Assembly (NCBI GenBank): GCA_951406725.2
Contig: OX597819.1
Coordinates: 94,488,001-94,552,000, forward strand
DNA length: 64,000 bases
Reading direction: 5' to 3'
Source of the DNA: Octopus vulgaris
Lineage: Eukaryota
This document shows, piece by piece, positions 22,973-48,542 of this stretch. The position numbers and the translations under genes are program-made. How positions within the stretch are numbered: the first letter of the stretch is position 1; each line of letters opens with the position of its first letter. Below the pieces are notes generated by a model, which was not told the origin of the DNA, searched no databases, and worked only from the letters and a program-made list of their open reading frames with translations.

Positions 22973-23312
22973 TATTGTTTTGAGCTGTGTGGGGGTGCTA
23001 GATTCCCTTGTTTGAAAATATAAGGACACAGATCATGTTGTATAGCCAGCTGGAGACAATGTTTCCTGGGGCTAAATTACAGCAACATTCGTCCTAAACC
23101 AGGACTGCCATGTTATGTTGGCAAACAATCTTTACTCCAACTGCAATTATTGAGCCAAAAGATTCCCACAGTTTGAATAAACCTGGTATTGTGTAGTTAT
23201 TTCACTCTTTTAATTTATGTATTTCTATTAACTAATTGTTATACCTTTAATTGTGTTGTAAGTAATACCTGATACAATGGTTGTAGCAGTTATTTGTTTA
23301 TCTTCCCTCCAG

Positions 23313-23489
23313 AGTAATGTGGCTTATGTAGCACAGCAAGCTTGGATTCAAAATGATACCTTGCGGAATAATATCTTGTTTGGGAAACAGTATCATCAGT
23401 CTTTTTACACTAAAATCATCAATTCCTGTGCACTTCATACAGACTTAAAAATACTACCTGCTGCTGATCAAACTGAAATTGGTGAAAAG
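23313..23489 (+). CDS. ABCC1: ABCC1-like exon, NBD1 Q-loop (177 nt)
   Basis: ccag|AGT..AAG|gtagtg. Translates SNVAYVAQQAWIQNDTLRNNILFG...DLKILPAADQTEIGEK. Confidence 0.95.
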
Positions 23490-25418
23490 GTAGTGTATTT
23501 TGTTTTTATGATAATGGTCTTAGATGTTTTATGGATTTGAATGATGATGATGAATGATCAATGTCCAATATTTTAAATCCAGGTTTGTCCCCGTTAACAG
23601 GAATGGCCAGATCTACCTCACTCTTACAGCAACCGCTCTCACACCATCTTGCCAACTCACCCAATTTTGGGCATCCTCCCACCTCATGCCAACCCTCCCA
23701 ATCTCTTGCATGACCAAGGATGAGAGTTTGCACCTTCCTTTCAGTCCCATTGCAGCACCTTGGGCAAGTGTCTTCTCTTATAGCCTTCAGCTGATCAAAA
23801 GCTCGTGAGTGGATTTGGTAGATGAAAACTAAAAAGAAAGCCTGTTCTGTGTGTTTGTGTGTATGTATACATGTACATATGTGTTTATGTGTGTGTATAC
23901 GTTTCTCTATTCATAACATAATGGTTGTAAATGAGCATCATTGTCACACAAGCAAATCCCACTGAGTGACACCTTGGGCAAGTGACTTCTGCTATAGCCC
24001 TGAGCTGACAAGTGTCCTGTGAGTAAGTTTGGTTGATGGAGACTGTGTGGAAACTTGTGGTGTATATATGTGTGTATATGTCTGCGTTTGTTTCTCCCAC
24101 CACTTGATAACAGGTGTTGGTTTGTTTACATCCCTGTAACTTAATGGCTTGGCAAAAGAGACTGATAGAATAAGTACAAAGATTAAAAACTTAAATACTG
24201 AGGATGATTTCTTTGATTAAAAATCCTTCAAAGCAATGCTTCAACATGACTGCAGTTCAGTGACTGAAACAAGTAAAAGATAAAAATAAATCCTCGTGTA
24301 CGACAGCTTCTAACTGTGTGTTGCCATGTTAGTTTTGGTTATACAAGTGAGATCCACTGAAAACCAACATAGTTTACAGCAATAAAATTCTGTTCTTAGA
24401 GAACTTAGTCATGGTCTGGTAGAATGAGTCATTGAAATGTAAATGTTTTAGCTGTGGACTGAGTACTATCCCAGTGACAGAATAATCACAGAATGAGTCA
24501 TTTAGTTATCTGGTACCTACAAACTTGACAATTTTTTTCTCTTCTGTACACACACATGGCACATAAAAAGCACCATCCGAACATGGCTGATGCCAGCGCC
24601 ACCTGACTGACGTCTGTGTCGGTGACACATAAAAAGCACCAACCAATCGTGGACGTTTGCCAGCCTCCTCTGGCCCCTGTGCTGGTGGCACGTAAAAAGC
24701 ACCCACTATACTCATGGAGTGGTTGGCGTTAGGAAGGGCATCCAGCTGTAGAAACACTGCCAGATCAGACAGGAGCCTGGTGCAGCTTCCCAGACCCCGG
24801 TCGAACTGTCCAACCCATGCTAACATGGAAAACGAACATTAAATGATGATGATGATGATGAGATATATATATATGTGTGTGTGTAAAAGAATAAACAATC
24901 TCAGTTCAGTGCAATACACGTTTCAGAAGTAAGATATCCACCAAATCAAATGTGTACTATATCATATTATAAAGATATTTACCTCCACATCAGGCACATG
25001 ACTACCACATCAGAGTGATCTACATAAGCCAATTGTATGCTGAATGCTGAGCTGTTGACTTTCATCTATGTGATTCTTATAAACTTATATATGTAGGGGT
25101 GCTGAAAAGTTCTTGGCTTTGGGTAAAAAAAGATACAGGAGGATCAGTTAATTATGATTTTATTCAGCATATTCCCCTCTCAGATGCACACACTTATTAC
25201 AGCAGTCCATCAGTTTTTCTAAGCCCTGTTAAAAAACTTAAAAGTTTGGGTCTCCAACCAAACCTTTCACAAAACCTTTAAAGCCAGGAACTTTTCAGTA
25301 CCCCTTTATATATATATATATAATGTCTATGTAAAATATATAAACTGCATCTACTTAGTTACACATGATTACAAATTTTATTGTGTATGTATAAATTCAA
25401 GTTCTTTATGTAAGTTAA

Positions 25419-25655
<237 letters not shown>

Positions 25656-27814
25656 TAGTCTTGGTCATTGAGCTCTAGCTGTGCTGGAGAACTTTCAAGT
25701 GTTTTAACACTTTAGCATTTAAACTGACCATATCTACCCCAAATATTCTTTAAGCTCAAATTATCCAGATTTTGTCTTTTACACCAACCTTACAATGTCA
25801 CACCATTAAAATATTGAAGCTATGAGATGAGCCTTGATTAATTCAAAACAATATGAATAAATAAGCATTACATTTGGCAGAGTGATCTGAATGCTAAAGG
25901 GCTGATTGATATCAAATCCACTTCCGATACTTGTTTCAGTCTGGTATTGTTTTATTGATCTCAAATTGTGCTTCATACAGAAGCATTGTTCAATCTGCAC
26001 CTTCACTCTCAGGAAGGGTACCTTCATTGTGAAGAGAAATAGTAGTTCCCTGAATTTTTACCATCCCATTCTTTCTCTGGCTGTTATGCTTTTTGCAGCA
26101 ACCACTTTCATTGCTTATTAGGTCAAGGAGGAATATTGTATGTTAATAATTCTCAATATGCATAATAATATTCTGTTTGTTAGTAAAGTTACTATCGAAA
26201 TAAAGTTTATCCAGTATGTGACACAAAACTAACTTCTTCAATTATATATATATATGTGCAGGTGGCACATAAAAAGCACCATTTGAGCATGGCCGTTGCC
26301 AGTACCGCCTGACTGGACCTCGTGCCAGTGGGACGTAAAAAGCACTGACTACACTCTCGGAGTGGTTGGCATTAGGAAGGGCATCCAGCTGTAGAAACTT
26401 TGCCAGATCAGATTGGAGTCTGGTGCAGCCATCTAAATGTCTAAAAACGAACAATACAAAAGTATATATAAATCAATATTGGGCTAAATATTCTATTCTT
26501 TGTTTTCTTTTCTATCAATTTTATATATATATATATATATATACACACATGCACTTTATTTGTGGGTTATCAATGCAACCAATGGTTTCATGCAAAGATA
26601 TCTTCTCAATTGTTCAAGTGTACTACATGGAAGTGTTGGTACTTGTCTCCATTTTCAATGAGAATTCATGAGGTTACATGAGACTGAACAGGACATTGTA
26701 ATAAATACACAGATCGCAGGAGGTAACTTATAAGAATATCTTAATTGTTATTTTCCCTTGCACTAGCCCTGGAATTTTGCAAGAAATTGTGTTCACCATA
26801 GATTAATTCTTTAATTTTCTTATGTAAGAAACGTTCATACATGTCCATATTTATAAATCATACATACACATATGTAAAAGATACATGTATAAACACACAC
26901 ACACACCCTACAATATGAGTACATACATATAATTATTTATGGGATTTCATAGGTTTTAGAAGCCAGACTTCGTCCATGGAATTGCGAGTTCATAGATTTA
27001 TATAGATATGCTTTTTCTTGTTACTCATGTGATGTCCTAAATGTGTTATGCATATAAAACTGTGTGATTAGGGAATCCAGCCTAAGTTCATGGGGTGTAT
27101 GTCTTTAATGTATAATGTACATATATTATTGATATCCAAAAAACTGATGTGTATTTATTTCAAAATCCATGGCCGATGCTAGTGCCGCTTGACTGGCACC
27201 TGCGCCAGTGGCAAGTAAAAAGCACCATTCAAGCGTGGCCAATGCCAGTGGCACGTAAAAAGCACCATTTGAGCATAGTCGATGCCAGTACCGGTAGCAC
27301 ATTAAAAGCACCATCCCAGCTTGGTCGATGCCAGTGCTGCCTGACTAGCTTCCATGCCAATGGCACGTAAAAAGCACCATTCGAGCGTGGTCATTGCCAG
27401 TGCCACCTGACTGGCCCCCATGCTGGTGGCATATAAAGAGCACCCACTACACTCTCGGAGTGGTTGGTTTTAGGAAGGCATCCAGCTGTAGAAACCTTGC
27501 CAGGACAGACTGGAGCTTAGTGTAGCTTCCTGGCTTTCCAGTCCTCAGTCAAACCATCCAACCCATGCCAGCATGGAAAGCAGACATCAGTCTCATGTAA
27601 CCTTGTGTATTCTCATCCAAAATGGAGATGAGTACCAAGATTCCATATGCCATGCAGGAACAATTGTGAAGATCTCTTCACATGAAATCATTGGCTTCTT
27701 AATCCACAAATAAAAAAATATTTATCTACCAATGCAGTGTTGAGCACTCATTCTCACTGTTCAATATTGGCATATATATATATATTTGTTTCTCTTTCCC
27801 TCTCTGCCTCTTAG

Positions 27815-28013
27815 ACACGAATACTAGTAACCCATAATATCAACTACCTTGAACATATGGACATGATTATTGTAATGAAAGATGGCCAGATCAGTGAGAG
27901 AGGAACATTTCAAGAACTTCTTGGTCATAAAGGGGAATTCTCAGAATTCTTGCAAAATTATTTAACAGAACAGAAACAAACTGGAAATGAAGCTAGTGAA
28001 GAACAAGAAGCAG
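27815..28013 (+). CDS. ABCC1: ABCC1-like exon, NBD1 H-loop into linker (199 nt)
   Basis: ttag|ACA..GCA G|gtcagt. Translates TRILVTHNINYLEHMDMIIVMKDGQISERGTFQELLGHKGEFSEFLQNY... Confidence 0.94.
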
Positions 28014-28982
28014 GTCAGTATCTTCTTTTTTTTTTTCTCCTTCTGAAATTTATTCAGTCCTCAAAGAATCATTAAACCATAGAACTTTATAATTCTTTCT
28101 TTTCAAATGTTTAGATTTCCAAATTCTTGTTGTTGTTTATATTTTCAGTAAGGGGCTTGTTTTTAATGCTAAGAAATTGTCTAAGAAAATATTTACATCT
28201 GGGTTCAATGCCATGATTTTGGAAACTTTATTCAAATACATTTCTGTGCTGGTGGCACGTAAAAAGCACCAACCGATCATGGCTGTTGCTAGCCTCCCCT
28301 GGCACCTGTGCCAGTGGCACGTAAAAAGCACCCACTACACTCATGGAGTGGTTGGCGTTAGAAAGGGCATCCAGCTGTAGAAACACTGCCAGATCAGACT
28401 GGAGCCTGGTGCAGCCTCCTGGCTTCCCAGACCCAGTCGAACCGTCCAACCCATGCTAACATGGAAAACGGACATTAAACGATGATGATGATGATGATGA
28501 TTTCTCTCTTAAATTCTCCTTCATTATCTTTATATTAAATTTAAAAAATCTATCTGTTATCATTTACTAATTTCAGTCATTGAATTGCAACCATGATGGG
28601 GTACTGCCTTGAAGGGCATATTTGAACAAATCAACCCCAGTACTCATTTTTATTAGTCTATTACTTATATTGGCCTCTTTTGCTGAATTGCAAAGTTACA
28701 GGGATGTAAAGAAACCAACACCTGTTGTTGAACACTGGTGAGATAAATACAAAGATACACACACAAAATATTATTAACTTTCTTTTATCTTTTACTAGTT
28801 TCAGTCATTAGACTGCAAGCATGCTGGAGCATCATTTTGAATAATTTTTATTTGAATGAATAGCTCCCAATACTTATTTTTTTTTAACCTGGTACTTTTT
28901 CTGTCAGTCTATTTTGCTGAACTGCTAAGTTATGGTGATATAATCAAACCAACACCAGTTGTCAAGCAGTGGTATGGGACAT

Positions 28983-29025
<43 letters not shown>

Positions 29026-29920
29026 CTACACTCATGGAGTGGTTGGTGTTAGGAAGGGCATCCAGCCGTAGAAACATTGCCAGATCAAACTGGGCCTGGT
29101 GCAGCCTTCTGGCTTCCCAGACCCCAGTTGAACCATCCAACCCATGCTAGCATGGAAAGCGGACGCTAAACGATGATGATGATGATGATGATGATATATG
29201 ATAAGATTCTTTCAGTTTCTGGATACCATATCTACTTGCAAGGCTTTGGTTGACCCAAGGCTATAATAGAAGTCACTTGCCCAAGGTGTTATGCAGTGGA
29301 CTGAACTATGTGGTTGGGAAGCAAACTTCTTGACACACAGCCACATCTGCTCCTGTAAATATGGATGTGTGTGTGTGCTGGTGGCACATAAAAGGGCACC
29401 ATTCGAGTGTGATCGTTACCAACACCGTCTTACTGGCACTTGTGCCGGTGGCATGTGTAAAAAGATTCGAGCGAGGTCATTGCCAGTATCGCCTGACTGG
29501 CTCTGTGCCGGTGGCATGTAAAAAGCACCCACTACACTCTCGGAGTGATTGGCATTAGGAAGGGCATCCAGCTGTAGAAACCATGCCAGATCAAAATTGG
29601 AGTCTGGTGTGGCCATCTGGTTCACCAGCCCTCAGTCAAAATCGTCCAAAGTGGACGTTAAACGATGATGATGATGATGATGATGATGATATACATACAC
29701 ACACACACACATATACATGTTCCATCTACCAAATTCACTCACAAGGCATTGGTTGGCTCAGAGCTATAATTTAAGACACTTGCCTAAGGTGCTGCACAGT
29801 GGGACTGAACCCAAGACCATATGGTTAATGCTGTAGACTGTAGAGGTGTGCTGTTGTTTTTTTTCACATTTAAAATAAATTGTTGATGAACATATATGTG
29901 TACACATGTATTTGAGTACA

Positions 29921-29959
<39 letters not shown>

Positions 29960-30251
29960 GCCATTGCCAGCCTCGCCTGGCACGTAAAAAGCACCCACTA
30001 CACTCTCGGAGTGGTTGGCGTTAGGAAGGGCATCCAGCTGTAAAAACACTGCCAGATCAGACTGGGCCTGGTGCAGCCTTCTGGCTTCCCAGATCCCCGG
30101 TCGAACCGTCCAACCCATGCTAGCATGGAGAACGGACGTTAAATGATGATGATATGAGAGAGAGAGAGAGAGAGATACATTCATTTATTTGCATACATTT
30201 TTTTTATATATCTTTCCTAAATGAAAGTAATAATTTCAAATTTTTCTGTAG

Positions 30252-30303
30252 ATGATGATATTCATTCTTCACTTGAGGAAATTGTGCCTGAAGTTCGTAG
30301 AAG
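30252..30303 (+). CDS. ABCC1: ABCC1-like small linker exon (52 nt)
   Basis: ctgtag|AT GAT..AGA AG|gtaaag. Translates (D)DDIHSSLEEIVPEVRR(R). It bridges the phase-1 donor at 28013 to the phase-2 acceptor at 31626. The linker is poorly conserved, so support is splice signals and phase only. Confidence 0.75.
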
Positions 30304-30364
30304 GTAAAGTCTATGCTGCTATTTCTGTATTTGTTCTCTTGGCTTCAGCTTCCAGTCCTCCTGT

Positions 30365-30920
30365 GCTACTCTTGCACATCCATTCCACATAATGTTGACT
30401 ATTTTCAGGTCATCTTATAATGTCCACTACCATGTGTTTTTATACTGTTCTCTTTATGCCTGCCATCAGGTAGTGCCCAAGTCACAGCTGTTTTTGAGTG
30501 TTGCTGATCAGCTGGGTGAAGAATGTGTCCAGCCAGGTGGAATCGGTGCTCTGTTACAATCTTTTGTATGAACTCTTCTCAGAATTCCCTCATTAGTAAC
30601 AGTCCCACCAGTAGCATCGTTTGTAACACAGTCCCACTTGTAGCCTCAAAAGTACCACAGAAAGATCCTGTGGCACCATTGATGAAATACATTAAATTTT
30701 CTTTCCGTCCATATTGTGCTCTTCTAAGTCTCACTGGCATAGAGCAAAGGGGTTATACAGATGAAATTACTGGTCATTGCTGATGTTTGAGGCTGCCCAG
30801 ATGGAATACATATGCTGGAACACTGCTACTGCCTTTCCAATCCTGTAGTCTGTCAAGTTCCACATTACTAGTGCTACTTACAACACTGCCCAGATTGGTG
30901 AATTGGTTCACTTCTGTCTA
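30365..30920 (-). mobile_element. Decayed RTE-like LINE fragment
   Basis: The minus strand has remnants resembling E.NQFTNLGS, RIGKA and RFHLAGH(I), as in an RTE C-terminal region. Confidence 0.5.
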
Positions 30921-31557
30921 GTATTTGCTTTCACCCATCCATCTACTGACTTATGTAAATTAGTGGGCTGTTTAGTGTACATTGTAGATTAGTCACTATT
31001 TCTCTTACTCCACATGCTTGTTTTAAAGGTTACATCTCTAATACTTTGTTGTTAAGAATCTATATGTTGGATGAAGATTCATAGAGGTATATCTGTTGAA
31101 GTCCGTTCAACATATCCCAGCAAGTCTTTTTCTTAATGCTAACTAGGGCACTCTTATATGGTTGTATGTCATGTTAGGAATGTTAGCCAATCTCCCTCAA
31201 AACGCACTCAACTATTTTTAAAATAAAAGAAGACTCGGATGGAAATGTTAGTTAAACTAGTTTGAGATAAAATACATCTTTTATATTTTACTTGCTTCGG
31301 TCATTGGATTGTGGCCATATTACAGCACCACCTTGAAGGATTTAGTCAAACAACTTGACCCCAGTACTTATTTTTTTAAAGTCTGGTACTTATTTTATCA
31401 GTCTCTTTTGCTGAAGAGCTAAGTTACAGAGGTATAAACAAGCCAACACTGGTTGTCAAGTGGTGGTGGAGGGTAAGCACATACACAGACACACATATAT
31501 GTGATGGGCATCCACTGTATCTGTGTACCAAATTCACTCACAAGCTTTGTGTGTGTA

Positions 31558-31615
<58 letters not shown>

Positions 31616-31625
31616 TACTTTTCAG

Positions 31626-31764
31626 ATGGCATGGTCAAGAGGATGGGAAAATGGGCTCACCAGTGATGTCTTTGAAATCAGAGAATGCCTTTGAACTTGC
31701 TGAAAAAGACCAGTCTACTCCAAAAGATAAATTAATCGAGAAAGAAGCAACAATGACAGGAAAT
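31626..31764 (+). CDS. ABCC1: ABCC1-like linker exon (139 nt)
   Basis: ttcag|A TGG..AAT|gtgagt. Translates WHGQEDGKMGSPVMSLKSENAFELAEKDQSTPKDKLIEKEATMTGN. KLIEKE...TG is the conserved pre-TMD2 motif. Confidence 0.88.
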
Positions 31765-32561
31765 GTGAGTCGCATATTTTTTCTTTCCTCTCAGTGGTCA
31801 AGATTGAAGCATGCTGAAAATTTAAATTTACTATATAAATACACATTTTCACAGGCCAAAATATTTTGATGTAGATATGAATGTAACTTCAATGCAGTAT
31901 CATTAAAGAAGTTTTGTTTTTTATAACGGTGAAACAAAACCTAACTAGTTGTAACCTTAAGCAGACCTGTTGCAAGATATTTATTGGTTCAGGACAACAT
32001 AAAATGCCATCTAGTCATGTTGCTTTGATAGAATAACAAAGATGATATTGCACATTGTGTAGTGTTCATCATGAGGTGTGGAGGAATACCTCTTAAAAAA
32101 ATTTGAGGATTGAAGAGGGGTGGACAAATTGCCCATGTTTAATAAAATTAAGATGATTTTTAAACTTTGTAAACTTATCCAACACTATGGCAAAGAAAGA
32201 ATAACTATACAGATGCAATCTCTATTTTGTGTCTTCTTATAAATGAAGTGGAGTGGGTGGGGTTGCAGAACCACTAACTTAGCAGTTGTGGACTAAGGGT
32301 GGTGAAGAGGATATGCGCACACATGTGTGTATGTACACATATACATGACAGACTTCTATACAGTTTCTAGCTACCAAATTCACTCACAAGGCATGGGTCA
32401 GTTCAGAGCTATAGTAGAAGACACTTGCTCATGGTGCCATGCAGTGGAACTGCACCCAAGACTATGCGATTGCAAAGCAAACTTCTTAAGCATATAGTCA
32501 TCCTTGTGAAAGTTTCCTTCAATTTCTAATTAAAGATTTTCTGTTTTTTTCTTTCTTTCAG

Positions 32562-32784
32562 GTGAAATTGTCAGTGTTTTTAGCCTATGCTAAATTTGTC
32601 GGTGCCAAATTTATGTTAGTAACTTTAGTCACATTTTTCATGGTTGGTGCACTCAACATTTATTCAAACATTTGGCTCAGTGAATGGAGCAATGATGCCT
32701 TGCTTATTCCACAAAATGGTACAATTGACACTTCCCAAAGAGATTTGAGACTTAGTGTTTATGGTGTGTTGGGGATTAGCCAGA
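32562..32784 (+). CDS. ABCC1: ABCC1-like exon, start of TMD2 (223 nt)
   Basis: ttcag|GTG..CAG A|gtaagt. Translates VKLSVFLAYAKFVG...SNIWLSEWSND...RDLRLSVYGVLGISQ and ends in phase 1. Confidence 0.95.
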
Positions 32785-33792
32785 GTAAGTTTGAATTTTT
32801 TATTATTTCTCTTTCTTTTTTTCCATGTTAAAGACTGACAGCATCGATGGATAAAACAGAAATGTCTGTAAAGATATTGTTGTTCTCTTATTACATTTTA
32901 ATTTAGTTTTCCCCAAATATTTTAGTTTGATGTAAACAATAATTCTTGGTAGCTGTAAATATTGTTCATAAATTGGAATGGGAAGTTAAGACTCCTATTT
33001 CATGCAAAGACTTTCTTGGAAAGAAAATAAAAGGTCTCTCTTTCTCTCCCTCCCCCCTCTCTCTCTTTTTCTCTCACCCCAGCAAACAGCTTTGCTCAAA
33101 ATGTCAATATTCATAATTTCCAAAATTGTATGATCTTCACAAAATATTTTTTACTAGTGCGAAACATCACACTGTATGTAATTTTTCTGTTTAGTCAGAG
33201 AGAAAAGAACAGCCCTATGATCTCTGCTTTTTCAGAGTTTCTGAGACTGATTGTAAGAAAGGAGAAACTTAACCTCAAACTGGAGATGTCCAAATGCTTG
33301 CACCCAAGGACCAATCAGTGTTTAACTAGGCGACAGATTAAGTCTACTGTTTAAGGACTCAGAACACAAAAAACCAAAACATGTATTACAAAGGCCCTCA
33401 TCTGCTACTTTAGCAGTTTTGCTAATCTACCATCTTGGAATGGTACTTTATTTTATTGATCCCAAAAGGATGAAAGGCAAATATGATGTTAGTGACATAT
33501 GAACTCAGATTGCGGAAAACCAGAGCAAATACCACAAAGTATTTTGTTTTACACACTCTCAAGCAACTCTGCCAATTCACCAACTTAATATATTCATATA
33601 GCCAATTATTTTGAAACTGATTGTCAACAGTATATTTGTCATCTTATGGCACAGTTGGTTTACTTTATTTTTCTACATGATTCTACTACTGGTGGTAGGG
33701 GGGTTCTGGGTTTAAATTTTTTTTTTTTTTAATGTAAAAGAATGCTTGTGTTCCTGTTCATTCAAACAAGATTCATTCCTGTTCATTATTCC

Positions 33793-33818
33793 AGAAGAGT
33801 ATCTATCACATGTTTTCC
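33793..33818 (+). promoter_or_regulatory. Putative upstream docking element for mutually exclusive splicing
   Basis: AGAAGAGTATCTATCACATGTTTTCC is complementary to 38286-38311: about 23 bp in total, with 13 contiguous pairs including 2 G-U. Confidence 0.6.
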
Positions 33819-33994
33819 TCAGCAGCTTCCAATAGAGAATCTTAAATCTTTGTCAGCTACCTCTTTCATTAACAGAATTAATATCTGGGATTGCTCGATG
33901 TTGGCATATATTTTTAACTCTGTTCCCATTCTTGAACAGAAGAAATTCAATACTTCTTTTTATAAACTTTACTATGTTGTTTTATTTCTTGCAG

Positions 33995-34305
33995 GTATTG
34001 CAGTAGTGATAGCTGATCTGCTTTTATTTGTTGGTTGCCTACGAGCTGCAGGCTTCCTCCACGAAAACATACTTTCCAATGTTCTTTTCTCTCCAATGGC
34101 CTTCTTTGATCAGACACCTGTGGGCCGACTCCTCAATCGGTTTGGAAAGGATGTAGAAGTCCTGGATTTCCGTTTGGTTGAAAACATTGAATCGTGTATC
34201 ATGTGTTTACTCAGGATTGTTTCTGTACCCATCGTTATTATACTCAATACACCTATTTTTATAGTTGTCTGCATCCCTCTCTTCATCTTATACTTCATAG
34301 TTCAG
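33995..34305 (+). CDS. ABCC1: ABCC1-like alternative TMD2 exon, copy A (311 nt; about TM13-ICL3-TM14-TM15)
   Basis: gcag|GT ATT..CAG|gtttga. Translates IAVVIADLLLFVGCLRAAGFLHENILSNVLFSPMAFFDQTPVGRLLNRFGKDVEVLDFRLVENIESCIMCLLRIVSVPIVIILNTPIFIVVCIPLFILYFIVQ. Phase 1 in, phase 0 out. Confidence 0.93.
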
Positions 34306-34391
34306 GTTTGATAGCATTTTTTTGTATCTTTGAATTTTTCTAAAATTTATTCTTTAAAAAAAATATACTATTTTTTAAAAAATATGTATTG

Positions 34392-34411
34392 CATAGTTTA
34401 TCGTTGGAATT
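34392..34411 (+). promoter_or_regulatory. Putative selector element downstream of exon copy A
   Basis: CATAGTTTATCGTTGGAATT is complementary to 38770-38790: 11 contiguous bp, then 4 bp after a 1-nt bulge, extendable. Confidence 0.5.
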
Positions 34412-37400
34412 AGGTAGGCTTATTCCCCCCATTCAAAACAGTCTTTCTCTCTCTTGGTTTCACTCTATAAAATCTTATTTTATCAAAAATCCCATATGCA
34501 ATTTGTCACAAAATTGTAACACAAACTTTGTATTCTTAGTGGTCCAAAGTCTGCTCGTTTAGTTATGCACTAGATATACATGTCACAAAATGAAGATTTT
34601 ATTTTGTTAAATTACCTATATATTTTACCTGGACTAACAATCTTGCTAAACCGATTCCACTCATACCATCAATGTATATCACCACCTGTCACCAGTGTTT
34701 TTAAAACTAAATGTCCAAGTTTGTTTTACTACAACAACCACTTGTTTTTGTACAATTTTTAGAGATTTCAGCTTGAAGTTTAAACACCTTATCATAGCCT
34801 AGAGAGAAAATAATTTGCACATTTTTCCAGTATACTAATGGTAATTAAATTAAATAACAAAAGAAGAAATGAAAATATTATTTGTTGTGTAAATATCTCT
34901 TCCTATGTAGATATATATATATACCATTAGGAAAGAAAATGAAATAATAGGAATTAATTGTAATGCTATTTGCTTCTTTTCTCTTTCTCTCTGACAAGCA
35001 TGTTGCTTTATTTTAGTCATTAAATCATGCTATCCTTGCTGTTTTATGCTTGTCTTTAGTTTGATTTTTACTGTGAAAATTAACTCACTTTATCAGTAAT
35101 TCACACTTATATTTTCATTTAATTACAAATGGAATTGTGAGGATGGTAGCTTTTAGAAAATTAGAATTACTTAAGATTTATTTTTTTATCTGATCCCTTA
35201 TCATTGTTCCTTTTATGTAATTTAATGAAAATTTTCAGGTCTTAAAAGATACTGTAGTTAAATATCTTCATCAGAACACCAGAAACTTGGGGTTTATTTG
35301 TTGTTATTCACTTATGAACACCAAATTATTAAAACTTTAATAAAGCATTACTGCTTTATGTCCTTATGATATTTCAAAAATCCTATTAGACATGGATTTG
35401 TTGTCGAGTCACCAATATAGCCAGATTTACTTTCTATATCAATAGCAGTTTTAAGTCTCTCATCATTTAACAGCCTTTTTCCTTGCTGGCATGAGTTGGA
35501 CAATATGACAGTATTTGAAGCTTTTGTAAATCACTGAGAATGTTTCAAAATTGTGCATCTTTTATTGATAATTAATGTAGTCCAATTAATATGAAGCACA
35601 TATTCATTTTTAAGAAAAGCTTATTAACGACTCAAGCATAACTATTTTTGTAGTATTTTTTATAGTTTGCTAGTATTTTTTCTAAGATTATGGCGAAGAG
35701 AAGAGAGGATTGCAATCATATCATCTAAATTGAGTTTTACCATTTCTTTCTACAGCAATAGTAGTATCACTTTTTTTTCCACCTCTCTGTTTTAGCACCC
35801 ACACATACATTCTGTATCATCAAGCACATTTTACATTAGCTATTAAGTTGTCTTTTGGTTTCATTTCCAGTAAAATCTAAGCATTTTTTTTGTTCCATCA
35901 CTTGCACTTTTGATGTGATATAACTACACTGTCTGTTGTCTTCAATTAATGTTTGACTCAATAACAAACAGCTTTCAGCTTTGACCCTTTAGCATTCAAA
36001 CCAGCCATATCCAGCCCAAATATTCTACCTGTTTTATATTCAAACTGGCCTTATCTGCCGCTCACCCTTACCCTACAATGTCATTCTAAAAATATACAAA
36101 CATAATGAAACCTCAGAGCTGTGAGATAATGCATGATTACTTCAAAATAATGTGAATAAATAAGCATTACATTTAACAGAGTAATCTGAATGCCAGGGGG
36201 TCAAACTGCAATGACACTTAAAGCCTTGTTTATAAACATTAATTAATGAAGCTTTATATAAGTAGTTATATGCTTTCTTTGACTTTTACTTTTCTCTTCT
36301 TTTTTTTTTAATTCTTTCTCCCTCTTTAGGAGCAATTACTAATTTGTACTTTTAATATAATTACTTATCTTTTCCTATAACAGATCTCTTGGAATATCTA
36401 CATTTTCTTCTCTTAATAACCAGTGCTTCTAATTCTCTCTCCTCTTTGCAGCATGTGATATACATACATATATATATCCCATTAAGCAATTTTCTTTAGT
36501 TTTATTTTATTTGTATGTTAAATTGTATTGACTTTTTATTCTTTTATATTTTCATGTTTTATTTCTTATTAACATTTTTATGTTTTTTAAATTTTAGTTT
36601 TATTTCTCTTTTATTTGTTTTTTGTTTATTTCTTTCAGTTTTCAGTTTTTTTCTTTTTTTATATATTTTGTTTGCATTATCTTTAAATAATAATAATAAC
36701 AATAATGATAATAATAATGGCAATAATAATGATAAACTTTTCTAAACATTAAGTTAGTTCAGCTTATATATATATATATAGACAGAAGTCAACTCATGGC
36801 TAAGACAACTTCCTAAGTAATTCTGTGCAAACGTTCTGGGAGCCCAAGAAATTTCTGTGCATAAATTTGTATTAAATGGATAAAGAATGGCATAGCATTG
36901 AACCCACTTTTCAGCATAATCAGTTCTAAAACTAGTGGCACAACAGAGGCTGAGATAACCAGAAACCAACTGCACTTCAGGTTTTTTTAATATGTGTTTA
37001 CCTTCTAGAAGGAAGTTCCTACAACTAGGAATCCTTCGTTCCCAGTGGTTTACATGCTAATTAACTCTGAGCTGGGACCCTAGCAGATGTTACTCAGGGT
37101 CAGAGTAGACCTGGAAACAATAATGGCTAGGAGGTGGTTTCACACTCACTCAAACCCTAGAACTCCAGTTCCAGGGTTCCACTACTAAGTCATACCCAGT
37201 GGTGGGAGGACACTAAAATAATAGTGTTTATTAATTCTCTTCCTTTTTATAATTTAGATGATAATGATTACTATCATAAAAAGATGTTTAGCCTATTATA
37301 TTCTAAGCGCTTAAAGTAGTAGATTATGCATTCAAAACTAACCGCTGCTAGTATGCTATTCCCTTGGATAATGCATATTTCTAATTAAATAAACTAATTA

Positions 37401-38285
37401 AAATGATAACAGGCTAGATTCAAATTAGCACCATTCATTTCCAAATTAAGAGCAATAACACCCTTAACCACAAAAATCATTGATGCATAAGCACATAATT
37501 ATCCTTACATTAGAAATTAAAGTTTCCTTTCTCAAAACCCATATAGTGCTATGTACAAACCTAGGAATCATACATCTGATGATAATCAGTTATTGAAACC
37601 TAGGATAGATTATTAGTATCATGGCAAACATTATTAGTCTGGAAATTGCGTAATCATATTAACAATGCATATCAGGCATTTAAACAGTTAAGTATTCTAA
37701 AAGTTTCTGCAATCTAAACCTGCTAAAAGGGAGAAAATAATAAACTAAAATTGTGCTAAAATAATAATGCCACACAACCTTTTCAACTGTTGTAATATCA
37801 CAGAAAATTTACAAGAAAAAATTTAATACAAATGAAAATATATTAACCTACTCCTTCTTCTCATTTGCATCATTATCATTCTAAGTCTTAAATCTACGAC
37901 TGCATGCCAGGACAGATTGTACACTGATTGTACACTGTATACTTAATGGCTACCATATTTGCCTGTGCTGGCTCTTTTGCATATTTGGTTGTGTTTCTGA
38001 AGTTTTACCTGGAGACTTTACAAGTAGATGCCCTTATTTAGTGGGGCATGCTAAGTTATGTTTGCCATGATACTTTCAGCAGAACCTCTTCATTAACCTA
38101 AGAGATATCTTCACTCCATATCAACTTCAGTCCCCTACCATAAAAAACAAAATAAGTAAATAAACCAAGTGTGTTTCTTATGGAAACCAATAAAAGAAAA
38201 ATTTGAATTATAAAAATTGTTTTAAGAGTAATATTTTACTTAATTTTATTAATTCTTAACAATTTTATTCACTTTTATCAAACTC

Positions 38286-38311
38286 GGAGTAAACATGATA
38301 GATATTTTACT
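38286..38311 (+). promoter_or_regulatory. Putative selector element upstream of exon copy B
   Basis: GGAGTAAACATGATAGATATTTTACT pairs with 33793-33818. It abuts the branch-point-like TACTTAAT at 38308-38315. Confidence 0.6.
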
Positions 38312-38387
38312 TAATTTTTACTTTGTTGTTTTTTAAATTTTTTTAGTATTTTTATTTTATTTTGTTCTTTATTGTTTTGTTATGCAG

Positions 38388-38698
38388 ATGCGATGAGCAT
38401 GATAGCTGCACTCTTAATGGCTTACTCTGGTATGCACGCTTCATGTGGTGTGTTTGATAAACTGCTTGAAAACATCTTGCACCTTCCTATATCTGCTTTC
38501 GATGCTATTCCAGTCGGCCGAATTATAAATCGCTTCTCATTTGACATGGATGATGTTGACAATGTCATTCCGTTTACTATTCGCTCCATGCTAAATACAA
38601 TAATAACGGGTGCTTTCACTTTTCTAATCCTCTCTATAAATACTCCTCTTGTCATTTCAATTGTGCCTATTGTAGGCATAATGTTCATATATGTCAAG
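38388..38698 (+). CDS. ABCC1: ABCC1-like alternative TMD2 exon, copy B (311 nt; paralog of 33995-34305)
   Basis: Long pyrimidine tract, gcag|AT GCG..AAG|gtaact. Translates AMSMIAALLMAYSGMHASCGVFDKLLENILHLPISAFDAIPVGRIINRFSFDMDDVDNVIPFTIRSMLNTIITGAFTFLILSINTPLVISIVPIVGIMFIYVK. Same length and phases as copy A, no stops. Confidence 0.9.
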
Positions 38699-38769
38699 GT
38701 AACTATATACTTGTATTACATTTTAATTAAAAATGTATTTCTTAAAGATTGTGCTTATATGTATATACA

Positions 38770-38790
38770 AGTTCCAATGAAAACATAATG
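38770..38790 (+). promoter_or_regulatory. Putative downstream docking element after exon copy B
   Basis: AGTTCCAATGAAAACATAATG pairs with 34392-34411. Confidence 0.5.
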
Positions 38791-39189
38791 AAGTTTAAAA
38801 ATTATGGTTTATGCATAAAATAAATTTAGAACCACAGTATTAATTATAGTCTAATGGTATCAGAAAACTCAGTTTAGCTACTTTAAAACAGTTGCTAGTT
38901 TGTTTTTTTTTTAATTCATTGCCTTCTTATTTGCTGAAAATAAATCTACAGAAATATTAAACCAGCATTGAAACTTTGAGATTATAGAGGTTTCTACAAA
39001 TATTACATAATATATTTTAAACCAGAGAACTAATTTTAGCTTTATAATGTTAAAGAATTAAGCTCTAGGATGTGAGTGTTCTATATCCTTTCCATTAAAT
39101 CAATACATGAGAAGAAAATAACAATCAGTTATATATATATATCTTAGCTGCTTTCTTGTATATGAGCAAAACCATTGCCAGAAAGAATC

Positions 39190-39490
39190 ACTGAAATGAG
39201 TCATTGTTGATGTAATGTGAGGCCCTCCTATGACTTGAGCCCAGCAAAAGATTTGCACATTCTATTGCACAATGCACAGCAGTGCTGGCTGGCAGAAGGA
39301 ACAGGTGCCATAGTATGAACTCCTTTGACATGCCTTTTCAATCCTCCAACTGAGAGGCACACCTTTTCGCAGGTTGCACATGTTCTGTTGTGCACAATAG
39401 CCATATCACAATTTACCATGAGTCAATTTTTGTGAGCTCTTTGATGGCTGACCAGGCCCACATTACTCAAGCACCTCTCTTCTCTTAATC
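39190..39490 (-). mobile_element. LINE 3' fragment with paired C2H2-like zinc fingers (similar decayed fragment at about 42400-43010)
   Basis: CATCEKVCLSVGGLKRHVKGVH..CALCNRMCKSFAGLKS, then a stop. It is isolated in an intron with no exon structure and resembles the C-terminal finger of RTE-like LINEs. Confidence 0.5.
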
Positions 39491-42400
39491 TTGGGATATA
39501 TATACATACACACACATATATATATAGATGAATAATGGTTAAGAGTCCATACAAATCAAAAATTAGAGTTGGAAAAGGCACAGAAATATATTTTAGAGAA
39601 TGATTAATAAAATATTACCTGTTTCAAAGTATCCATCTTAACAAATATAGAACTCAAATTTGGGTACAAATATATATATAATCATCATTGTTATTTAATG
39701 ACCATTTTCCATAGGTTGGACAGTTTGACAAGAGCTGGCAAGCTAGAGGGTCATGGTAAGGCCTGCTGCCTGTTTTGGCATGATTTCTATGACTGGATGC
39801 CCTTTCTAACATGAACCACTTTATGGAGTATACTGGGTGCTTTTTTGTGGCCCTGGCACCAGTGGGGTTTCCAAATAATTTGCAAGAAAAGTCATTGTTT
39901 TAACATCTGCTTTTCCAAACTGCTTTATATAAGTAACAGTTTGTAGCAGTATAGTTTTATCATCAAATATTTTTTCTTAAGCATCCATTATATGATTTAT
40001 ACTTTTTGGCCGGGTACTGTTTTTATCCCCCCAAAATATAGTATTGCCAATTGGATTGACTATAGTATTTTACTAGAGCATATTTTTTATCATTTATGAA
40101 TATGAATGCTACATCATCATCATCATCATCACTTAGCATCTGTTTTCCATACTGGCATGGGTTGTTTGGTTTGACAGGAGCTGCCTAGTCAGAAGACTGC
40201 ACCAAGCTCCACTGTCTGATTAAACATGGTTTCTATGGCCTGATGCCCTTCCTAATACCAAACATTTTACAGGTGTACTGAGCACTTTTTACGTGGCACT
40301 AGCAACAGTGAGGCCACCAAATAATTTACATGACAAGACCCCCTTAAGCTATTGGGTGGGCTAACTAGAATTGGAAAAGGTGGCTTGGTGCTTGATGAGA
40401 AGTTACAGTATGAGTAGAGGGACAGAAATAAATGTCTTGCAATAAAGGAAATATATGGATGCCTTAGTAGGTGGGGATGAAAAGATGGGGGATACACTTA
40501 AATTACAGGGAAGTGAATATAAGTGAAGTGAGACCAAGGATTGGACAAGGTGAGTGGGAGGCAGAGGGAATGTAGTGAGTGGACAGAGATAGAGGGAGGG
40601 GGTGTTTAGGTGGATATGTTGTGGGGAAGACATTCAACAGGAATGATAGGGAGTAGTGGGGTACAGCAGATGGTGAGCACAAGCGAGGAGAGAGGGGAAG
40701 TGCCGCAAAGAATTGAACTCAAAAGTTACAAATCAATCATTGAGCGAAGTATTTTTTGTACAACCTTTTATTTATTGAAATATTTTCACTGATCAAAATA
40801 GGCTCATATTAATTCTGAAATAATTTCCTGAATTCTATGACCTGCATGACATAACATGTCATATGTCTTCTGAATTCTTTGCTAGCTCATAACGGCTACA
40901 TACTGATCGGCATCTGAAGCAGTATCTTTGTTTTCATGTTTAATTATGCATGTTAGCATGCATTACACACAACTATTAATATACTCTCAGCCTCTTTCCT
41001 TCACATTTCAATCTTGTGTTAGCATGTATGAGAGATTAATATATTCAGATCAATTTTAGCCACTTTGAACATCAGCCTACATTTCTTCACTCAGCATGTA
41101 TGATTTATATTGTTGCATATCTATAACTCTTATACTTATTTCTCCTGGATGCATACAGTAACCAATGCCTTTGGTAATATAGCTGCATGCTTTTTCAACT
41201 CTTTTGCACTGGCTTTTCTCACAAGTTAAACTTATATCTATTTACTGCTCTCACTGCTATACAGTATCACAATTTCTACATACTCTATAACTTTATTTTG
41301 TTTGTTTCTTTGAAGTTTTTTTGTTGTTGTTGTTTTTCTTCTTACTTTTTCCATGCTGGCATGAGTTAGGCAAGACTTATTGAAGCAAATTTTCTACAGT
41401 TGGATCCTCTTTTTGTTGTGAACCTTTATTTTATTTTCCTAAGAATGGTATTTTTTTCATTCTATTGGTCCTCACCTGTCAAAATTGATTGAACAAAAGG
41501 CCTTTAGTTTACTGGAGAATGTAAATAATGTCACTAGTTTATTCAGACAGTGTTAATGAACACACACATGTTTACACAATAGACTTCCTCATAGTTTTCG
41601 TCTACCAATTCCACTCGCAAAACATGGGTCAGCTCAAGGATCCACTCTACAGGACTGAACCCAAAAACACATAATTGAGAAGCAAACTTCTTTACCACAC
41701 AGCCATGCATGTATCAGTTTGTCTTTCATAAAGCTTTGTATTGTTGTTTAGTATAGTTACAGTCAAGTCTCACATACTAAATATGTTGAGCTTTGGTGTA
41801 TTTTGATATCATACCTTACACTTCACAAATATTGTTTAACTGAGAGGCATATTGAATTTAGTTATCAGTGCAGAGACTGGCATTATAGATACAGTTAGTA
41901 CATAAACTTGATTTTTTTTTTATGTTTAACTATTATATATTACCATTATATTCTCTTTCTAGTAAGTTATCTGGACACTCTACAACCTTTTAGTCCAAGA
42001 CAACTCACATCACTATCTCTCTACACCAGTGTGTCTGGTTTCCTTAAAGGGATTTTTTTCTCTCATATTACCAGAGATCTTTCTACTTTTTTTTAGTTGG
42101 TGGCTATTTGCAATGAGCAAAGATATTCAGTTTTCTGCCTGGTTCATAATCATCACCATCATCGTTTAATGTCTGTTTTCCATGCTGGTATGGGTTGGAT
42201 GGTTTGACTGAGGCCTGGAGAGCCATTCTGCATATTTCACAAGTTCCTAACATTTGTAAAAGATCTCTGTTCGTTTCTCAAATTTTCTAATCTAAGACTT
42301 CTTATATTCTATATTATGGTAATAATCATCACTGTCATTGGTGTTTCACCCTGTATTCTCTTTCTTTAATATATATTGATTGGCTTCTTTGTGGTTTGTC

Positions 42401-45157
42401 CTTCATTGTCAACGGTGACCAAGACTTATGATTAGCTTGTATATCTAGTCTAGTGAGTCTAGATGTGACTGATGATCCCTATCCAGGCCAGGAATTTTCT
42501 CCCACATTGAGGGCTTTTATGGAAACGTGCAACACTCAGAGTACTTATAGTTCTAGCTTTGTTGAGTGAACGCTTCTCAGAAGCAGCAGTTCTTGTGTTT
42601 TTAGCTGCTTGGGCCTCAGTGTAAATCAGACTGCACCAGTTGCATCAGCTTTGGGCAAGCTGCTCTCAAGAGTCAACTACAATGGTGAAGTCTTTTAGAG
42701 ATACTTTTATGTAATCCTTGAACCACTTCTTTTGCCTGCCACAACAGTATGTTTTCCCTCACAAAATTTGCAATAGAGAAACTGCTTTGGGATGAGATGT
42801 TTTGGTATGTAATGATATGCCCAGGCCATCTCACCTCAGTCTTTACAAGAGGATGTACAAGATTGGAATATTGGCTTACTGTACTTATTGCACTTCATTG
42901 CCCAGGATCTTGTTTTTCCAGCAGATGTGCAGGATGCTGTAAAGCCATTGTGTGAAAAGAATTGAAATATTTCGTGTGTTTCTTATAGACTGTTTAGGAC
43001 TCATAAGCATATCAGCTCAACCTTTTTGTGATTAAATTTCTAACATGTACACTATTTCTTATATATCAATATAATCAGGACTTTGGGAGTTCAGCAAAAT
43101 ATCTTACTTCATATATTGGTATTTATTATGTTGATGTTGATAAACTGATATCATGCTATCATTCATGCAACATTTTCGTTCAAATATAAAATCTTAAGTG
43201 TGGCTGGCCTCAGACAGGAGTTGCTATATAAAAGGCTTAAAATCTTTTCTCATAAATTAGTCTAAATTATTTCACTTTCAATGATAGTAAAATATAAGAT
43301 ATATAGATAGCACTTTCACTTACATATAATACGAATATTTTCTCATAAAGTGTTCTTGAATTCATAAAATAATCTAGATTTGTTTTTTGTTTTTGTTTCA
43401 TGTTGCTGAAATGTAAAGGTTAACGTAATAATTTTACTAAATCTTGTCTTTGTAATTAATAAAGTTGTTTGCTAAATCAGTTTAAGATCTTTGTTAAAAC
43501 AATTTTAACACTAAGTAAGAAACATGGTTATATAACATTCTAATTCATTGGTGCTGGATTTATACTCATCTTATAATAACTCTGCTTGTCATTGCTTTAC
43601 TTAGCCCATGGGTAACGTTTTCATGTAACTAGAGAAAAAGAGGGCAAGAGAAGTGTCCATGGCATGGGGTATAGGGAATGTAATTGTAATGCTTTCACGT
43701 GATTAGTTGAAGGGAAAGAGGGGAGAGAGAAAAAGAGGATAAGACAGAAAGAGGGAGAGAAAAGCATCTATGACATGAAGTAGGGGGAACGTAATATTTA
43801 TTATATGGTTAAAAATGTGAGTTGAAAGTAGAAGAGGGGAGTTTAAAATATAATTTTAACAGAGGGGTGATGTTCTGATGGTGAGGTTAAAGAAAGGCAG
43901 AGAGGTAGGGAGATGATGATGGTGGTGGTGATTGGATAGTGAAAAGTGTTTGTTTGTTTTTTGTCTTAATTGAACTAAGTTTTTTACATCACCGTTCACT
44001 TAACACAGGCACATAAGTGCAATTCCATGAAATATTCAAGCTTATTTACATGGCAGATATATGCAATTTAACTAAAGGTTGTATCATATGTATGAGATAT
44101 TTTTTTCTTTATGGGAAAATGGAAAAATAAGAGTAAATATTTATTTTATGAGTGCTGTGTATTAAATCTATAAAATTGTGCATAAAGTATATAAAGTGTA
44201 TATATAAAGTTCATTAGGTAACCGTCATATTCCAATTTCTTTCACTTTTCAATGAGTAGCAGATAAGCGACAATCTTTCCATTCAGACACTGCACAGACT
44301 ACACTTTCAGGTTTTTTGGATAAAGTTTTCAGAAATAACCCAATAGGTTTACCATTAATTCCATTATTCATGGGTCCCACTAGTAAATTTTAATTTTCTC
44401 AAACTTAAACATTGTTCACTCATATTGTTGATATAAATTTACAAGTTGTCACTTTATCATAAAATTATTTGTTTTGAGATTTTGCCTCAAAAAAATTGTG
44501 AATGACATATTTTTCAAGCTGTTCAAGTATTAATACAGAATTTCTAAAGCCTCTGAGAACCATGTTCCTACTGTCATGGGTCTGCTTGATTAAAGATGAC
44601 CTGAAGCTATAAAACACAAAAAATATTAGCATATAATCTCTGTGTTAATAATCCTTAGGTATATAACAATTTATTAGAAGCCAAATAATTACTAGTTTTG
44701 TTATTCTTTTTGTGCATGTAAATGCAGTTCTTTGCTGGCATAGTTTAAATGGCTAACAGGATCCAATGGGCTCAAGGACTACATCCTGTTCCAGTGTCTA
44801 TTTGCAAGATTTCTACAGCTGGATGCCCTTCCTAATGCCAACCACTTTACAGTGTGCACAGGGTGCTTTTTTTCATACCAGTGGGGAAGGCAAACTTTAT
44901 ACTAGGAGGATAAGGTGTAGAGAGGGGTAAAATATGAGAGAAAAAGGCCAGAGCAAAGCAGGTTTTTTGTTGAGGGGAGGATGGGGAGAGCAGGAAATTG
45001 GTGATGAGGTGTCAGTGTAGACCTTAGAGGTACATGGTGGCTAAGAATGGGTAGAATAGGGGTACCAAAAATGAGTGGAAGAAGTAGAGGATGTTTTATT
45101 TATATTTTTGTCTTTTTGTTCACATATTATAAAACAGAATAAAAAAAACTTTGCTAA

Positions 45158-45388
<231 letters not shown>

Positions 45389-45430
45389 TAATTTTATCTT
45401 CTCTATACATTATTATTATTGTTGTTGTTG

Positions 45431-46548
45431 TTATTGAGTGAGAAAGCAGTGCATGCCATCAGAGTAACTGGGGTAAAATATATGAAGCCTCGTATTATAC
45501 CCATCACAACTACCCATCTGATAAGGGTAACCCAGGCACATTCATCACAACCATGTGTGCACAACATGATGACCTGATATTGAAATAAACAGCCACATGA
45601 CCTTGCAAGTGGGGCCCAGTTAGAATTTTCATGTTGAGTAGCCCATCTCACTCAAAAGGTCTCTAAATAAGAGTTGTTTAAGGATGTTGAACAAAACACC
45701 CATGTTTCCAGAGATGAATTATTCAAACTCCAAAGTATTCCTCTCAATACATGGCTATGGTGCTCCCACACTACTTCTGCTCATAATCAGAGATGCACAT
45801 ATCATCAGCCACTAAGGAACATGCTCAACTAGTTATGATCAAACAACTGGCAGGCAAATCTGTGGTATTGAGAGCAGAATATTTGCTGTAGCCCATCTTT
45901 TATACCAAGACAAAGCAGTGTACATGATAACACTTCCAATCAGTTAAAATCAGGAGCCATGAGAGTCACTGCTTAGTACTTATCAGGGCATTTATTATTA
46001 TTGAGTGAAAGAGCAGTGCATGCCATCAATGTGACACTGGAGTAAAATATACGAAGCCTAGTATACCCATCATGACTACCCGTCTGATAAGGGTACACTA
46101 GGTACACGCATCACAACCATATGTGCGCGATATGGTGATCTCATATCAAGATAAACAGTGCATGACCTTGCAGGTGGGGCCCAGTTAGAATTTTCTTCTG
46201 GTTGAGTAACCCATCCGTCTCTAAATGTCTTTGAATAAATAATGTTTAAGGATGTTAAACAAACCACCCATGTTTCCAAAGGTGAATTATCCAAACCTCC
46301 AAGAATTCCTTTCAACACATGGCTATGATGCTCCTCCACTACTTCTGCTTGTGGTCAGAGATACACATATCGTCAGCCACTAAGGGACATGATCAACTGG
46401 TTATGGTCAAACAACTGACAAGCAAATCTGTGGTATTGAGCAGAATATTTGCTGTAGACCATCTTTTATACCAAGACAAAACAATGTACATGATAACACT
46501 GCCAATCAGTTAAGATCAGAAGCTATGAGAGCCACTGTCTGGTACTGC
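45431..46548. repeat. Two tandem diverged copies of a ~560-bp repeat
   Basis: 45431-45990 and 45998-46548 align throughout (TTGAGTGA..GCAGTGCATGCCATC ... GAGAG.CACTG) and are separated by (TTA)n. Confidence 0.85.
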
Positions 46549-46832
46549 TATTATTATTTTTTTTTTTCCTTCTTTTTACAAATTTTCTTACATTTCTCGC
46601 CGAGTGTTTTCCGTACACCTAGGGCAGAGAGGCTCATTGTATGCATTCCCAGATTACACACACAAATTCACAGTTAAAATATGCATTTAAAAAAAAATTA
46701 ATAAATAAATAAATTCATGAATGGATGTTGTTTTCACAGCGATAATGCTCTTCTCAGTACATGAGCCATTCCAGTTAACACGATTTTTTGCACTTCCTCC
46801 TCCTTCTTATTATTATTATTATTACAACAAAA

Positions 46833-48055
46833 GACAGTGAGCTGGCAGAATCATAAGCACACTGGGCGAAATTCTTATCATTTCATCCATCTTTACATTC
46901 TGAGTTGAAATTCCACCAGGGTTGACTTTGCCTTTCATCCTTTTGGGGTTGATAAAATAAGTACCAGTTGAGCACTGAGTTGATGTAATCAACTAGTCTC
47001 CTCCCCTGAAATTTCAGGCCTTGTGCCTATAGTAGAAAGGATTATTAAGGTTATGAGCTGGCAAAATTGTCAGCTCAACAAACAAAATGCTTAATGCCAT
47101 TTCATCTGTGTTTATATTCTAAGTTCAAATTGTGCTAAGGTTGACTTTGCTTTCATCCTTTCAGGAGTGATAAAATAAGTACCAGTTGAACATTGGGGTT
47201 AATGTAATCAATTAGCACCCTCAACTCTGAAATTTTAGGTCTTGTACCTATAGAGTTATTATTATTATTATTTAAGGTAGCTAGCTGGCAGCACTGTTAG
47301 CACATGGAACAAAGTGCTTGGGGGCATTTCATCCACCCATTCATTCAAAGCTCATATTCTACCAAGTTTGGCTTTGCCGTTCATCCTTTTGCAAGTCAAT
47401 AAAATAGGTACCAGCTGAGTGCTGAGGTCAATGTTATTGACTTTCCCCTCCACTAGAATTTCAAGCCTTGTGTCTCTGATAGAAAAGAATGGCAGCAGGA
47501 GGAGGAGGGTGGCAAGCTGACAGAATTGTTAGCATGCCAAGCAAAATGCTTTGTGGCATTTCTTTCGTCCTTACGTTCTGAGTTCAAATTTCGCTGGGGT
47601 CAATGAAATATGTACCAGCTATGCACTGGAGGTCAATGTAATCAACTAGTCCTCCAAAACTTTAGGCTTTGTGCCTATAGTAGAAAGGATTATTATTATT
47701 ATGTTATTATGATCAGCAGCAGCATCAAATGGCAAAATCATTGCGATGCTCAACAAAATGCTTAATGGCACTTCTTCCAGCTCTTTGCATTCTGAGTTCA
47801 AATCCCACTGCAATCAACTTTGTCTTTTATCCTCACCTATGATTGATAAAATAAAATAGCAATCAAGTACTGGAGTCAGTTTAATTTGACTTAACTCCTT
47901 CCCCTCAAATTTCAACCTTGTACCTATGTTAGAAACAATTAGTATTTTTACTTTTATGAACTTTTATTAGGGCAGTTGATTGGCAAAATTGTCTTACAGT
48001 ATTTATTCTGGCTCTTTTTATTCTGAGTTCAAATCCCACTAGGACATCTTCATCC
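46833..48055 (+). repeat. Tandem array of 5-6 diverged ~220-bp SINE units
   Basis: Each unit reads GAGCTGGCAGAAT..TTCTGAGTTCAAAT..GACTTTGCCTTTCATCCTTT..GATAAAATAAGTACCAG..(ATT)n. The central motif resembles the Nin/Deu SINE domain as I recall it. Dispersed copies also occur (e.g. 21974, inverted at 50470-50670). Confidence 0.75.
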
Positions 48056-48415
48056 TTAATACGCTACTCTCTGCTGTTACCAAAATAATGTGGTTGCAAA
48101 CTGACAGCCATTGGTTGTTTTTTTCTTTTCCTTTTTTTTTTTCTTGTGGTAATGTGATGATAGTGTTTAGTACCAAATCAGCACCAGCTGAGCTGAATTA
48201 TGATCAAAGACAATCCACTTGTCACCATCTTATCTCCTGAACTTTAGCCATAATGTATCAAGAACTAAATTATCCATCAGCATATCTTTTTTTTCTGAAT
48301 GGTACTGTGTGAACTGAGAGAGATTTGACTGCTGTTTCTCACAAGTCAAATGACCATCTAAGGACTCCCTTGCTGACATGTTTGTTCCTTACCTTTTCTT
48401 CTTTATTTTTACTAG

Positions 48416-48542
48416 GTGGCTGGCTTTTAGAACTGGATTTATGAGTGATCTGATTGTATTCTTTTCTGCTGTCTTTTCTGTAACCAACCGAGATTCACTC
48501 ACTCCTGGCAGTGTTGGACTTGCTATAACATACGCTCTCAGT
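48416..48542 (+). CDS. ABCC1: ABCC1-like exon, TM16 (127 nt)
   Basis: ctag|G TGG..AGT|gtaagt. Translates WLAFRTGFMSDLIVFFSAVFSVTNRDSLTPGSVGLAITYALS. Confidence 0.94.

Follow-up and report, generated by a model that had tools for sequence, protein, structure and literature searches.

The window analysed here, a 64,000-nt stretch of the Octopus vulgaris genome (contig OX597819.1, positions 94,488,001 to 94,552,000), holds part of a gene for an MRP1-type (ABCC1-like) export pump in which two tandem exons of the same length, here called A and B, lie between the same two constitutive exons (Table 1). All positions are given in the numbering of the whole window unless another locus is named. The 21 exons of the window, with exon A included, match without mismatch the Octopus vulgaris protein P0002, which is named MRP1-like by NCBI and contains 1510 aa, and the gene extends from about 30.6 kb upstream of the window to position 65495, about 1.5 kb past its end. 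P0002 possesses the domains PF24357, PF00664 and PF00005 and has the architecture of a long ABCC transporter, consisting of TMD0, two transmembrane domains (TMD) and two nucleotide-binding domains (NBD); its best matches in the PDB are MRP1, then ABCC3 and ABCC2.

Table 1. Features of the MRP1-like gene and of the variable exon pair in the window (TM, transmembrane helix).
Feature	Position	Strand	Description
Constitutive exon 5′ of the pair (TM12 region)	32562..32784	+	223 nt, donor GTAAGT, phase 1 out
Variable exon A	33995..34305	+	311 nt; aligned to human MRP1 1028-1130, it covers TM13, a cytoplasmic loop, TM14 and TM15
Exon A pocket codons (human 1089-1100)	34180..34215	+	E1089, E1092, S1093, C1097, R1100
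Intron between A and B	34306..38387	+	4082 nt
Variable exon B	38388..38698	+	311 nt; member of the B-type clade (PFTIRS..N)
Exon B pocket codons (human 1089-1100)	38573..38608	+	F1089, R1092, S1093, N1096, T1097, T1100
Constitutive exon 3′ of the pair	45188..45387	+	200 nt, phase 0 in
ABCC1/MRP1-like host gene, part inside the window	7940..62284	+	21 exons with copy A, P0002 residues 327-1405

Both variable exons are entered in phase 1 and left in phase 0, are free of stop codons and are bordered by the splice sites TTGCAG and GTTTGA (A) or ATGCAG and GTAACT (B), with the introns around the pair measuring 1210, 4082 and 6489 nt in order. When aligned without gaps, the two copies are identical at 28 of 103 residues and 129 of 311 nucleotides, the mean and maximum of 10,000 shuffles of the comparison being 7.9 and 19 identical residues. 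Either copy alone, joined to the exon ending at 32784 and the exon starting at 45188, gives a frame that is open throughout, while A and B spliced together run into a stop 2 codons past the start of B, and a transcript lacking both does so after 48 codons of the exon starting at 45188. Between 32790 and 45188, A and B are the sole open 311-nt phase-1 exons with AG..GT borders, and no third exon copy was found there by tblastn. The adjacency, the like length and phase, the proper splice sites and the frame rule characterize the pair as tandem homologous exons that are mutually exclusive by frame. The original prediction, made from the letters of the window, had described both exons with these lengths, phases, AG/GT sites and stop-free frames, had counted the 28 shared residues by hand and had stated that a single exon, and neither both nor none, keeps the frame, all of which was reproduced by computation.

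The pair is already annotated in RefSeq, as two predicted isoforms of the orthologue in O. bimaculoides, namely X1 (XP_014791160.1, P0012) and X2 (XP_014791161.1, P0007). Both models contain 1471 aa, and the 74 positions at which they differ all fall in residues 963-1066; X1 holds A, and X2 holds B spliced to both flanks. Alternative RefSeq models usually rest on transcripts. Between O. vulgaris and O. bimaculoides, exon A is identical at 101 of 103 residues, exon B at 98 of 103, with four of the five changes being conservative, and the rest of the protein at 1285 of 1367 (94%). The proposal that a tandem duplicate gives two isoforms agrees with the models, and by these counts both copies are conserved like the rest of the protein.

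An assembly artefact, or a piece of a paralogous gene, could in principle account for the second copy, since six ABCC paralogues in the same genome hold the same 311-nt exon, but this origin has a negligible probability: A and B are only 41% alike in DNA, both copies are present in the independent O. bimaculoides annotation, and neither groups with a paralogue exon, the best paralogue identity to B being 38%. The artefact is refuted by the second species itself. In each of the six paralogues there is one 311-nt exon at this site with both flanking exons in view, and no tandem copies were found between these flanking exons, so that a single exon is the ground plan of the family.

The TMD2 stretch of the protein aligns without gaps to human MRP1 (E 1.8e-74), which is also its best match among solved structures, and the mapping of the cargo pocket is based on this ungapped alignment, in which residue i of the exon corresponds to human residue 1027+i and the exon spans residues 1028-1130. 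In bovine MRP1, residues Q1088, M1092, S1096 and N1099 are located in a hydrophobic "plastic" pocket and are contacted by vincristine, estrone sulfate or a cyclic dinucleotide (PMC12647609). Their human counterparts are E1089, M1093, S1097 and N1100, and at these four positions copy A possesses E, S, C and R and copy B possesses F, S, T and T, so that three of the four differ. Position 1092 is occupied by E in A and by R in B, and an aspartate at 1084 is present in all 47 aligned rows. It is likely, as far as such a mapping can suggest, that the two isoforms differ in cargo preference.

The search for relatives of exon B was performed with HMMER over 1.84 billion representatives, and the best 150 matches were listed. 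After 14 near-duplicate or internally repeated proteins had been removed, a quick tree of 167 rows, which served only to spot the B clade, placed octopus B inside a group of 30 rows with a Shimodaira-Hasegawa-like approximate likelihood ratio test (SH-aLRT) support of 94, a result that applies to the best 150 matches listed. The 28 members of this group outside Octopus are single-exon read-throughs, 27 of which end at the same donor; the closest non-Octopus B among the matches listed is the ENA reading frame P0021, with 47% identity. A scan of metagenome contigs queried with a 13-sequence subset of the B-type read-throughs yielded 36 loci (L033-L068), all of them intron-containing, animal-type DNA. 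The complete B-type 311-nt exon is present in 32 of these loci, and two or more complete 311-nt copies are present in 13, the multi-copy loci being the L035 group, L062, L063, L064 and L065. The ten loci of the L035 group, which includes nine B-then-other loci of related species, are not all independent. The B-type copy comes first in the L035 group, L062, L063 and L065 and second in the octopus and in L064, where an A-like copy is followed by the B-type one. As a separate observation, L065 contains at 10008-16237 seven tandem 311-nt copies in one MRP1-like gene, beginning with the B-type, with the stretch ending before the next constitutive exon.

The constitutive exons of those loci that offer enough sequence are 54-62% identical to the octopus ones, the corresponding values for decapod-type, beetle and fish proteins being 75%, 59% and 56%. 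Judged by these identities, the B-type loci lie well outside the cephalopods. A careful tree built from 47 selected rows unites the B-types in one clade of 17 rows with 99/99 support, in which octopus B sits on a long branch, and groups cephalopod A with copy 1 of L064 (95/92). The B-type exon has the invariant signature P-F-T-x-R-S-x-x-N, and six positions are the same in all 17 rows. As the loci had been fetched by the B motif, two controls were needed, namely a tree with the signature columns removed, in which 16 of the 17 B-types stay together (SH-aLRT 86), and residue N1096, which lies outside the search pattern and is present in 17 of 17 B-type rows. Since the B-type is common to very distant animals, it is likely to be far older than octopuses. 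The original prediction had called the duplication old, which is supported. Its further statement that the duplication evolved independently is not supported: octopus B falls into a clade with distant tandem arrays, and a constrained clade of cephalopod A and B, which expresses that hypothesis and to which P0021 was added after the quick tree, was rejected by the approximately unbiased (AU) test with a p-AU of 0.00093.

A duplication of the pair within the cephalopod line, with convergent B-like exons elsewhere, would fit the independent origins of MRP exon arrays across phyla stated in PMC6071210, the differing order of A and B between the lineages and the drop in support of the B clade once its signature columns are removed. 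Despite that, we regard it as quite improbable in view of the 99/99 support for the B clade, the rejection of the cephalopod A and B clade and the invariant positions, as well as the identity of octopus B to five distant B-types (33-41 of 103 residues), which exceeds its identity to the neighbouring A (28 of 103). It may even be suggested, tentatively and at somewhat less than even odds, that the B-type is one ancestral MRP1 splice variant that several animal phyla have retained, its aromatic-basic pocket wall (F1089, R1092, S1093, N1096) being fixed and its partner exons, one to six per gene, turning over freely.

The reading that we favour, with a probability of about 0.75, is that the two tandem copies, of which one is in frame at a time, probably give two MRP1-type export pumps with a predicted difference in the TM14 wall of the cargo pocket and that the duplication is ancient. 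The B-type copy would have been inherited from an ancestor common to distant invertebrates and may have been retained for a distinct cargo preference, with splicing factors probably setting the exon choice and nonsense-mediated decay presumably clearing those transcripts that contain both copies or neither.

Several points weigh against this reading. Concerning age, the presence of the B motif in L033-L068 is given by construction, 103 columns offer little data for a deep tree, and in L056 (1592-1902) the B-type exon lies alone between both flanking exons without a partner copy, which may reflect loss, a paralogue or misassembly. Concerning conservation, the intron read-through past B in O. 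bimaculoides (P0019) is also alike, at 27 of 29 residues by eye, so that the conservation of B may be overrated if neutral divergence is low. As to usage, the listed O. vulgaris and O. sinensis models hold A only, and B was not found in full-length proteins outside O. bimaculoides, squid and cuttlefish included, by a word-based search, which is weak evidence. As to the pocket, PMC12647609 reports that vincristine export by human ABCC1 was hardly changed by E1089A but was affected by M1093A, and position 1093 is S in both octopus copies, so that a differing cargo preference stays likely at most.

The points on usage bear also on a further explanation, in which A alone is in use and B is a leftover that is silent or in decay. 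The full-length O. vulgaris, O. sinensis, Argonauta and decapod-type proteins found are all A (exon A carriers being P0002, P0012, Argonauta P0003 and decapod-type P0005, P0006 and P0013), and the long branch of B would be consistent with decay; but the frame and splice sites of B are intact, it is conserved between the octopuses with mostly conservative changes, RefSeq X2 joins it to both flanks, and its signature is kept across distant animals, which makes a leftover very improbable. Since A is the copy in every other full-length cephalopod protein found, B may nevertheless be a minor or restricted form.

With regard to how the two copies would be kept apart, the steric and U2/U12 routes do not fit: the intron between A and B is far from very short, measuring 4082 nt, and all sites are of the GT-AG type with the donors GTAAGT, GTTTGA and GTAACT, none of which has the U12 consensus. 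Competition between RNA pairings of a docking site and selectors, which PMC6071210 reports for insect MRP1, seems unlikely to act here. A 37-nt inverted match of 34943-34979 with 44333-44368 would loop out B, and its score was reached by 2 of 60 local shuffles, but its duplex energy is average, since in the last intron 64 of 127 non-repeat windows pair at least as well. In the L035 group the B-type exon is followed by two conserved elements; across five loci they lack a consistently placed partner, and neither occurs behind A or B in the octopus window. The pairing search covered one genome and the A-B intron up to its short 3′ part, and within that scope no pairing of the A-B intron with the last intron rose above chance. 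The two elements themselves, short and intronic, lie within 300 nt after the B-type exon and are conserved in most of the loci L035, L036, L037, L043, L047, L051, L052 and L058, and a conserved acceptor (TACRTTTGYAG-like) precedes the B-type exon there; elements and acceptor are possible splicing-factor sites.

Elsewhere in the host gene, 164 kb were searched with sliding peptides, which revealed an inverted NBD1 fragment but no further duplicated exon. This intronic copy of the gene's own NBD1 exon (19618-19713, minus strand; P0002 770-801) is 84% identical with the donor side included and is likely a local duplication remnant. Stop-containing reading frames at 55960-56796, inside a host-gene intron, resemble a mariner-type transposase. 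The six ABCC paralogues are located on G000:C20 around 2.7, 43.9, 72.05, 72.20 and 72.26 Mb and on C22 at 15.78 Mb and form one clade (SH-aLRT 97) separate from the gene of the window, two of those on C20 being near-identical tandem genes.

The two isoforms would represent a natural exchange of one helix of the pocket lining, the MRP1 pump being otherwise unchanged, and therefore a clean test of the role of TM14 in cargo choice. If the B-type spans phyla, invertebrates would have preserved a form of MRP1 that is mostly missing from annotation and serves an unknown cargo, and the idea of separate MRP array origins per phylum would need revision; the B-type would then give invertebrate MRP1 a second, conserved way of handling substrates, concealed by the omission of its exon from gene models.

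Duplications of the same segment are known or visible in other animals. The gene models of Blattella (P0020) and Molorchus (P0022) contain three tandem copies of the region of P0002 residues ~1003-1076, which are the 5′ 74 residues of the 311-nt exon segment with the pocket positions included and the same start point. No B signature was seen in these insect copies, which all fall outside the A and B clades; judged by the same two models, the octopus pair does not have the exon boundaries and shared variant lineages that would place it with the insect eight-exon cluster. The MRP gene of Drosophila melanogaster (CG6214) possesses one cluster of 2 and one of 8 mutually exclusive exons (PMC4588896). 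The Blattella and Molorchus repeats may correspond to the cluster of eight. The earlier statement that the fly clusters involve other segments is therefore doubtful. Drosophila MRP resembles the octopus gene in being of MRP1 type with tandem homologous exons used singly, whereas the insect repeat unit has ~74 aa and the octopus one 103, and the competing RNA pairing reported for insects was not found in the octopus gene. C. elegans mrp-1 likewise carries homologous mutually exclusive exons, 13A-D (PMC4165533), but these are four exons of 156 nt (3n) that are 50-60% alike, in contrast to the two octopus exons of 311 nt (3n+2) that are 27% alike. As fly and worm MRP events fall in one structural region (PMC9741552) and the octopus and insect copies share one segment, this segment looks like a repeated target of duplication. 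Two differing full-segment copies followed by the sequence of the next exon are also present in P0027 from Coryphaenoides rupestris (residues 997-1099 and 1122-1214) and in P0050 (residues 6-109 and 113-212); a fish ABCC gene may carry a duplication too, or two genes may have been merged in the model.

In vertebrates, human ABCC1 has a single 311-nt exon 23 at this segment, and the solved human and bovine ABCC1/MRP1 chains have a single sequence there, whereas the octopus gene has two. The X1 and X2 models of O. bimaculoides show exactly this exon pair in the orthologous gene, known from automatic annotation only. No literature on the cephalopod exon pair or on a conserved B-type exon was found in a search that did not take in the main survey, Yue et al. 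2017 (RNA Biol 14:1399), which treats metazoan MRP tandem exon arrays as cited in PMC6071210 and PMC9741552. The gene family and the phenomenon are the same, and the octopus case may be among or near the mollusc examples of that survey. Its arrays are said to include Mollusca, Annelida and amphioxus. The octopus pair alone is one more example of the published pattern, already in RefSeq. The arrays are cited for independent origins, with multiple independent duplications across phyla (PMC6071210), whereas the octopus B-type is common to distant lineages, and it is this deep B-type conservation, together with a testable pocket swap, that the octopus case adds to the published MRP exon arrays.

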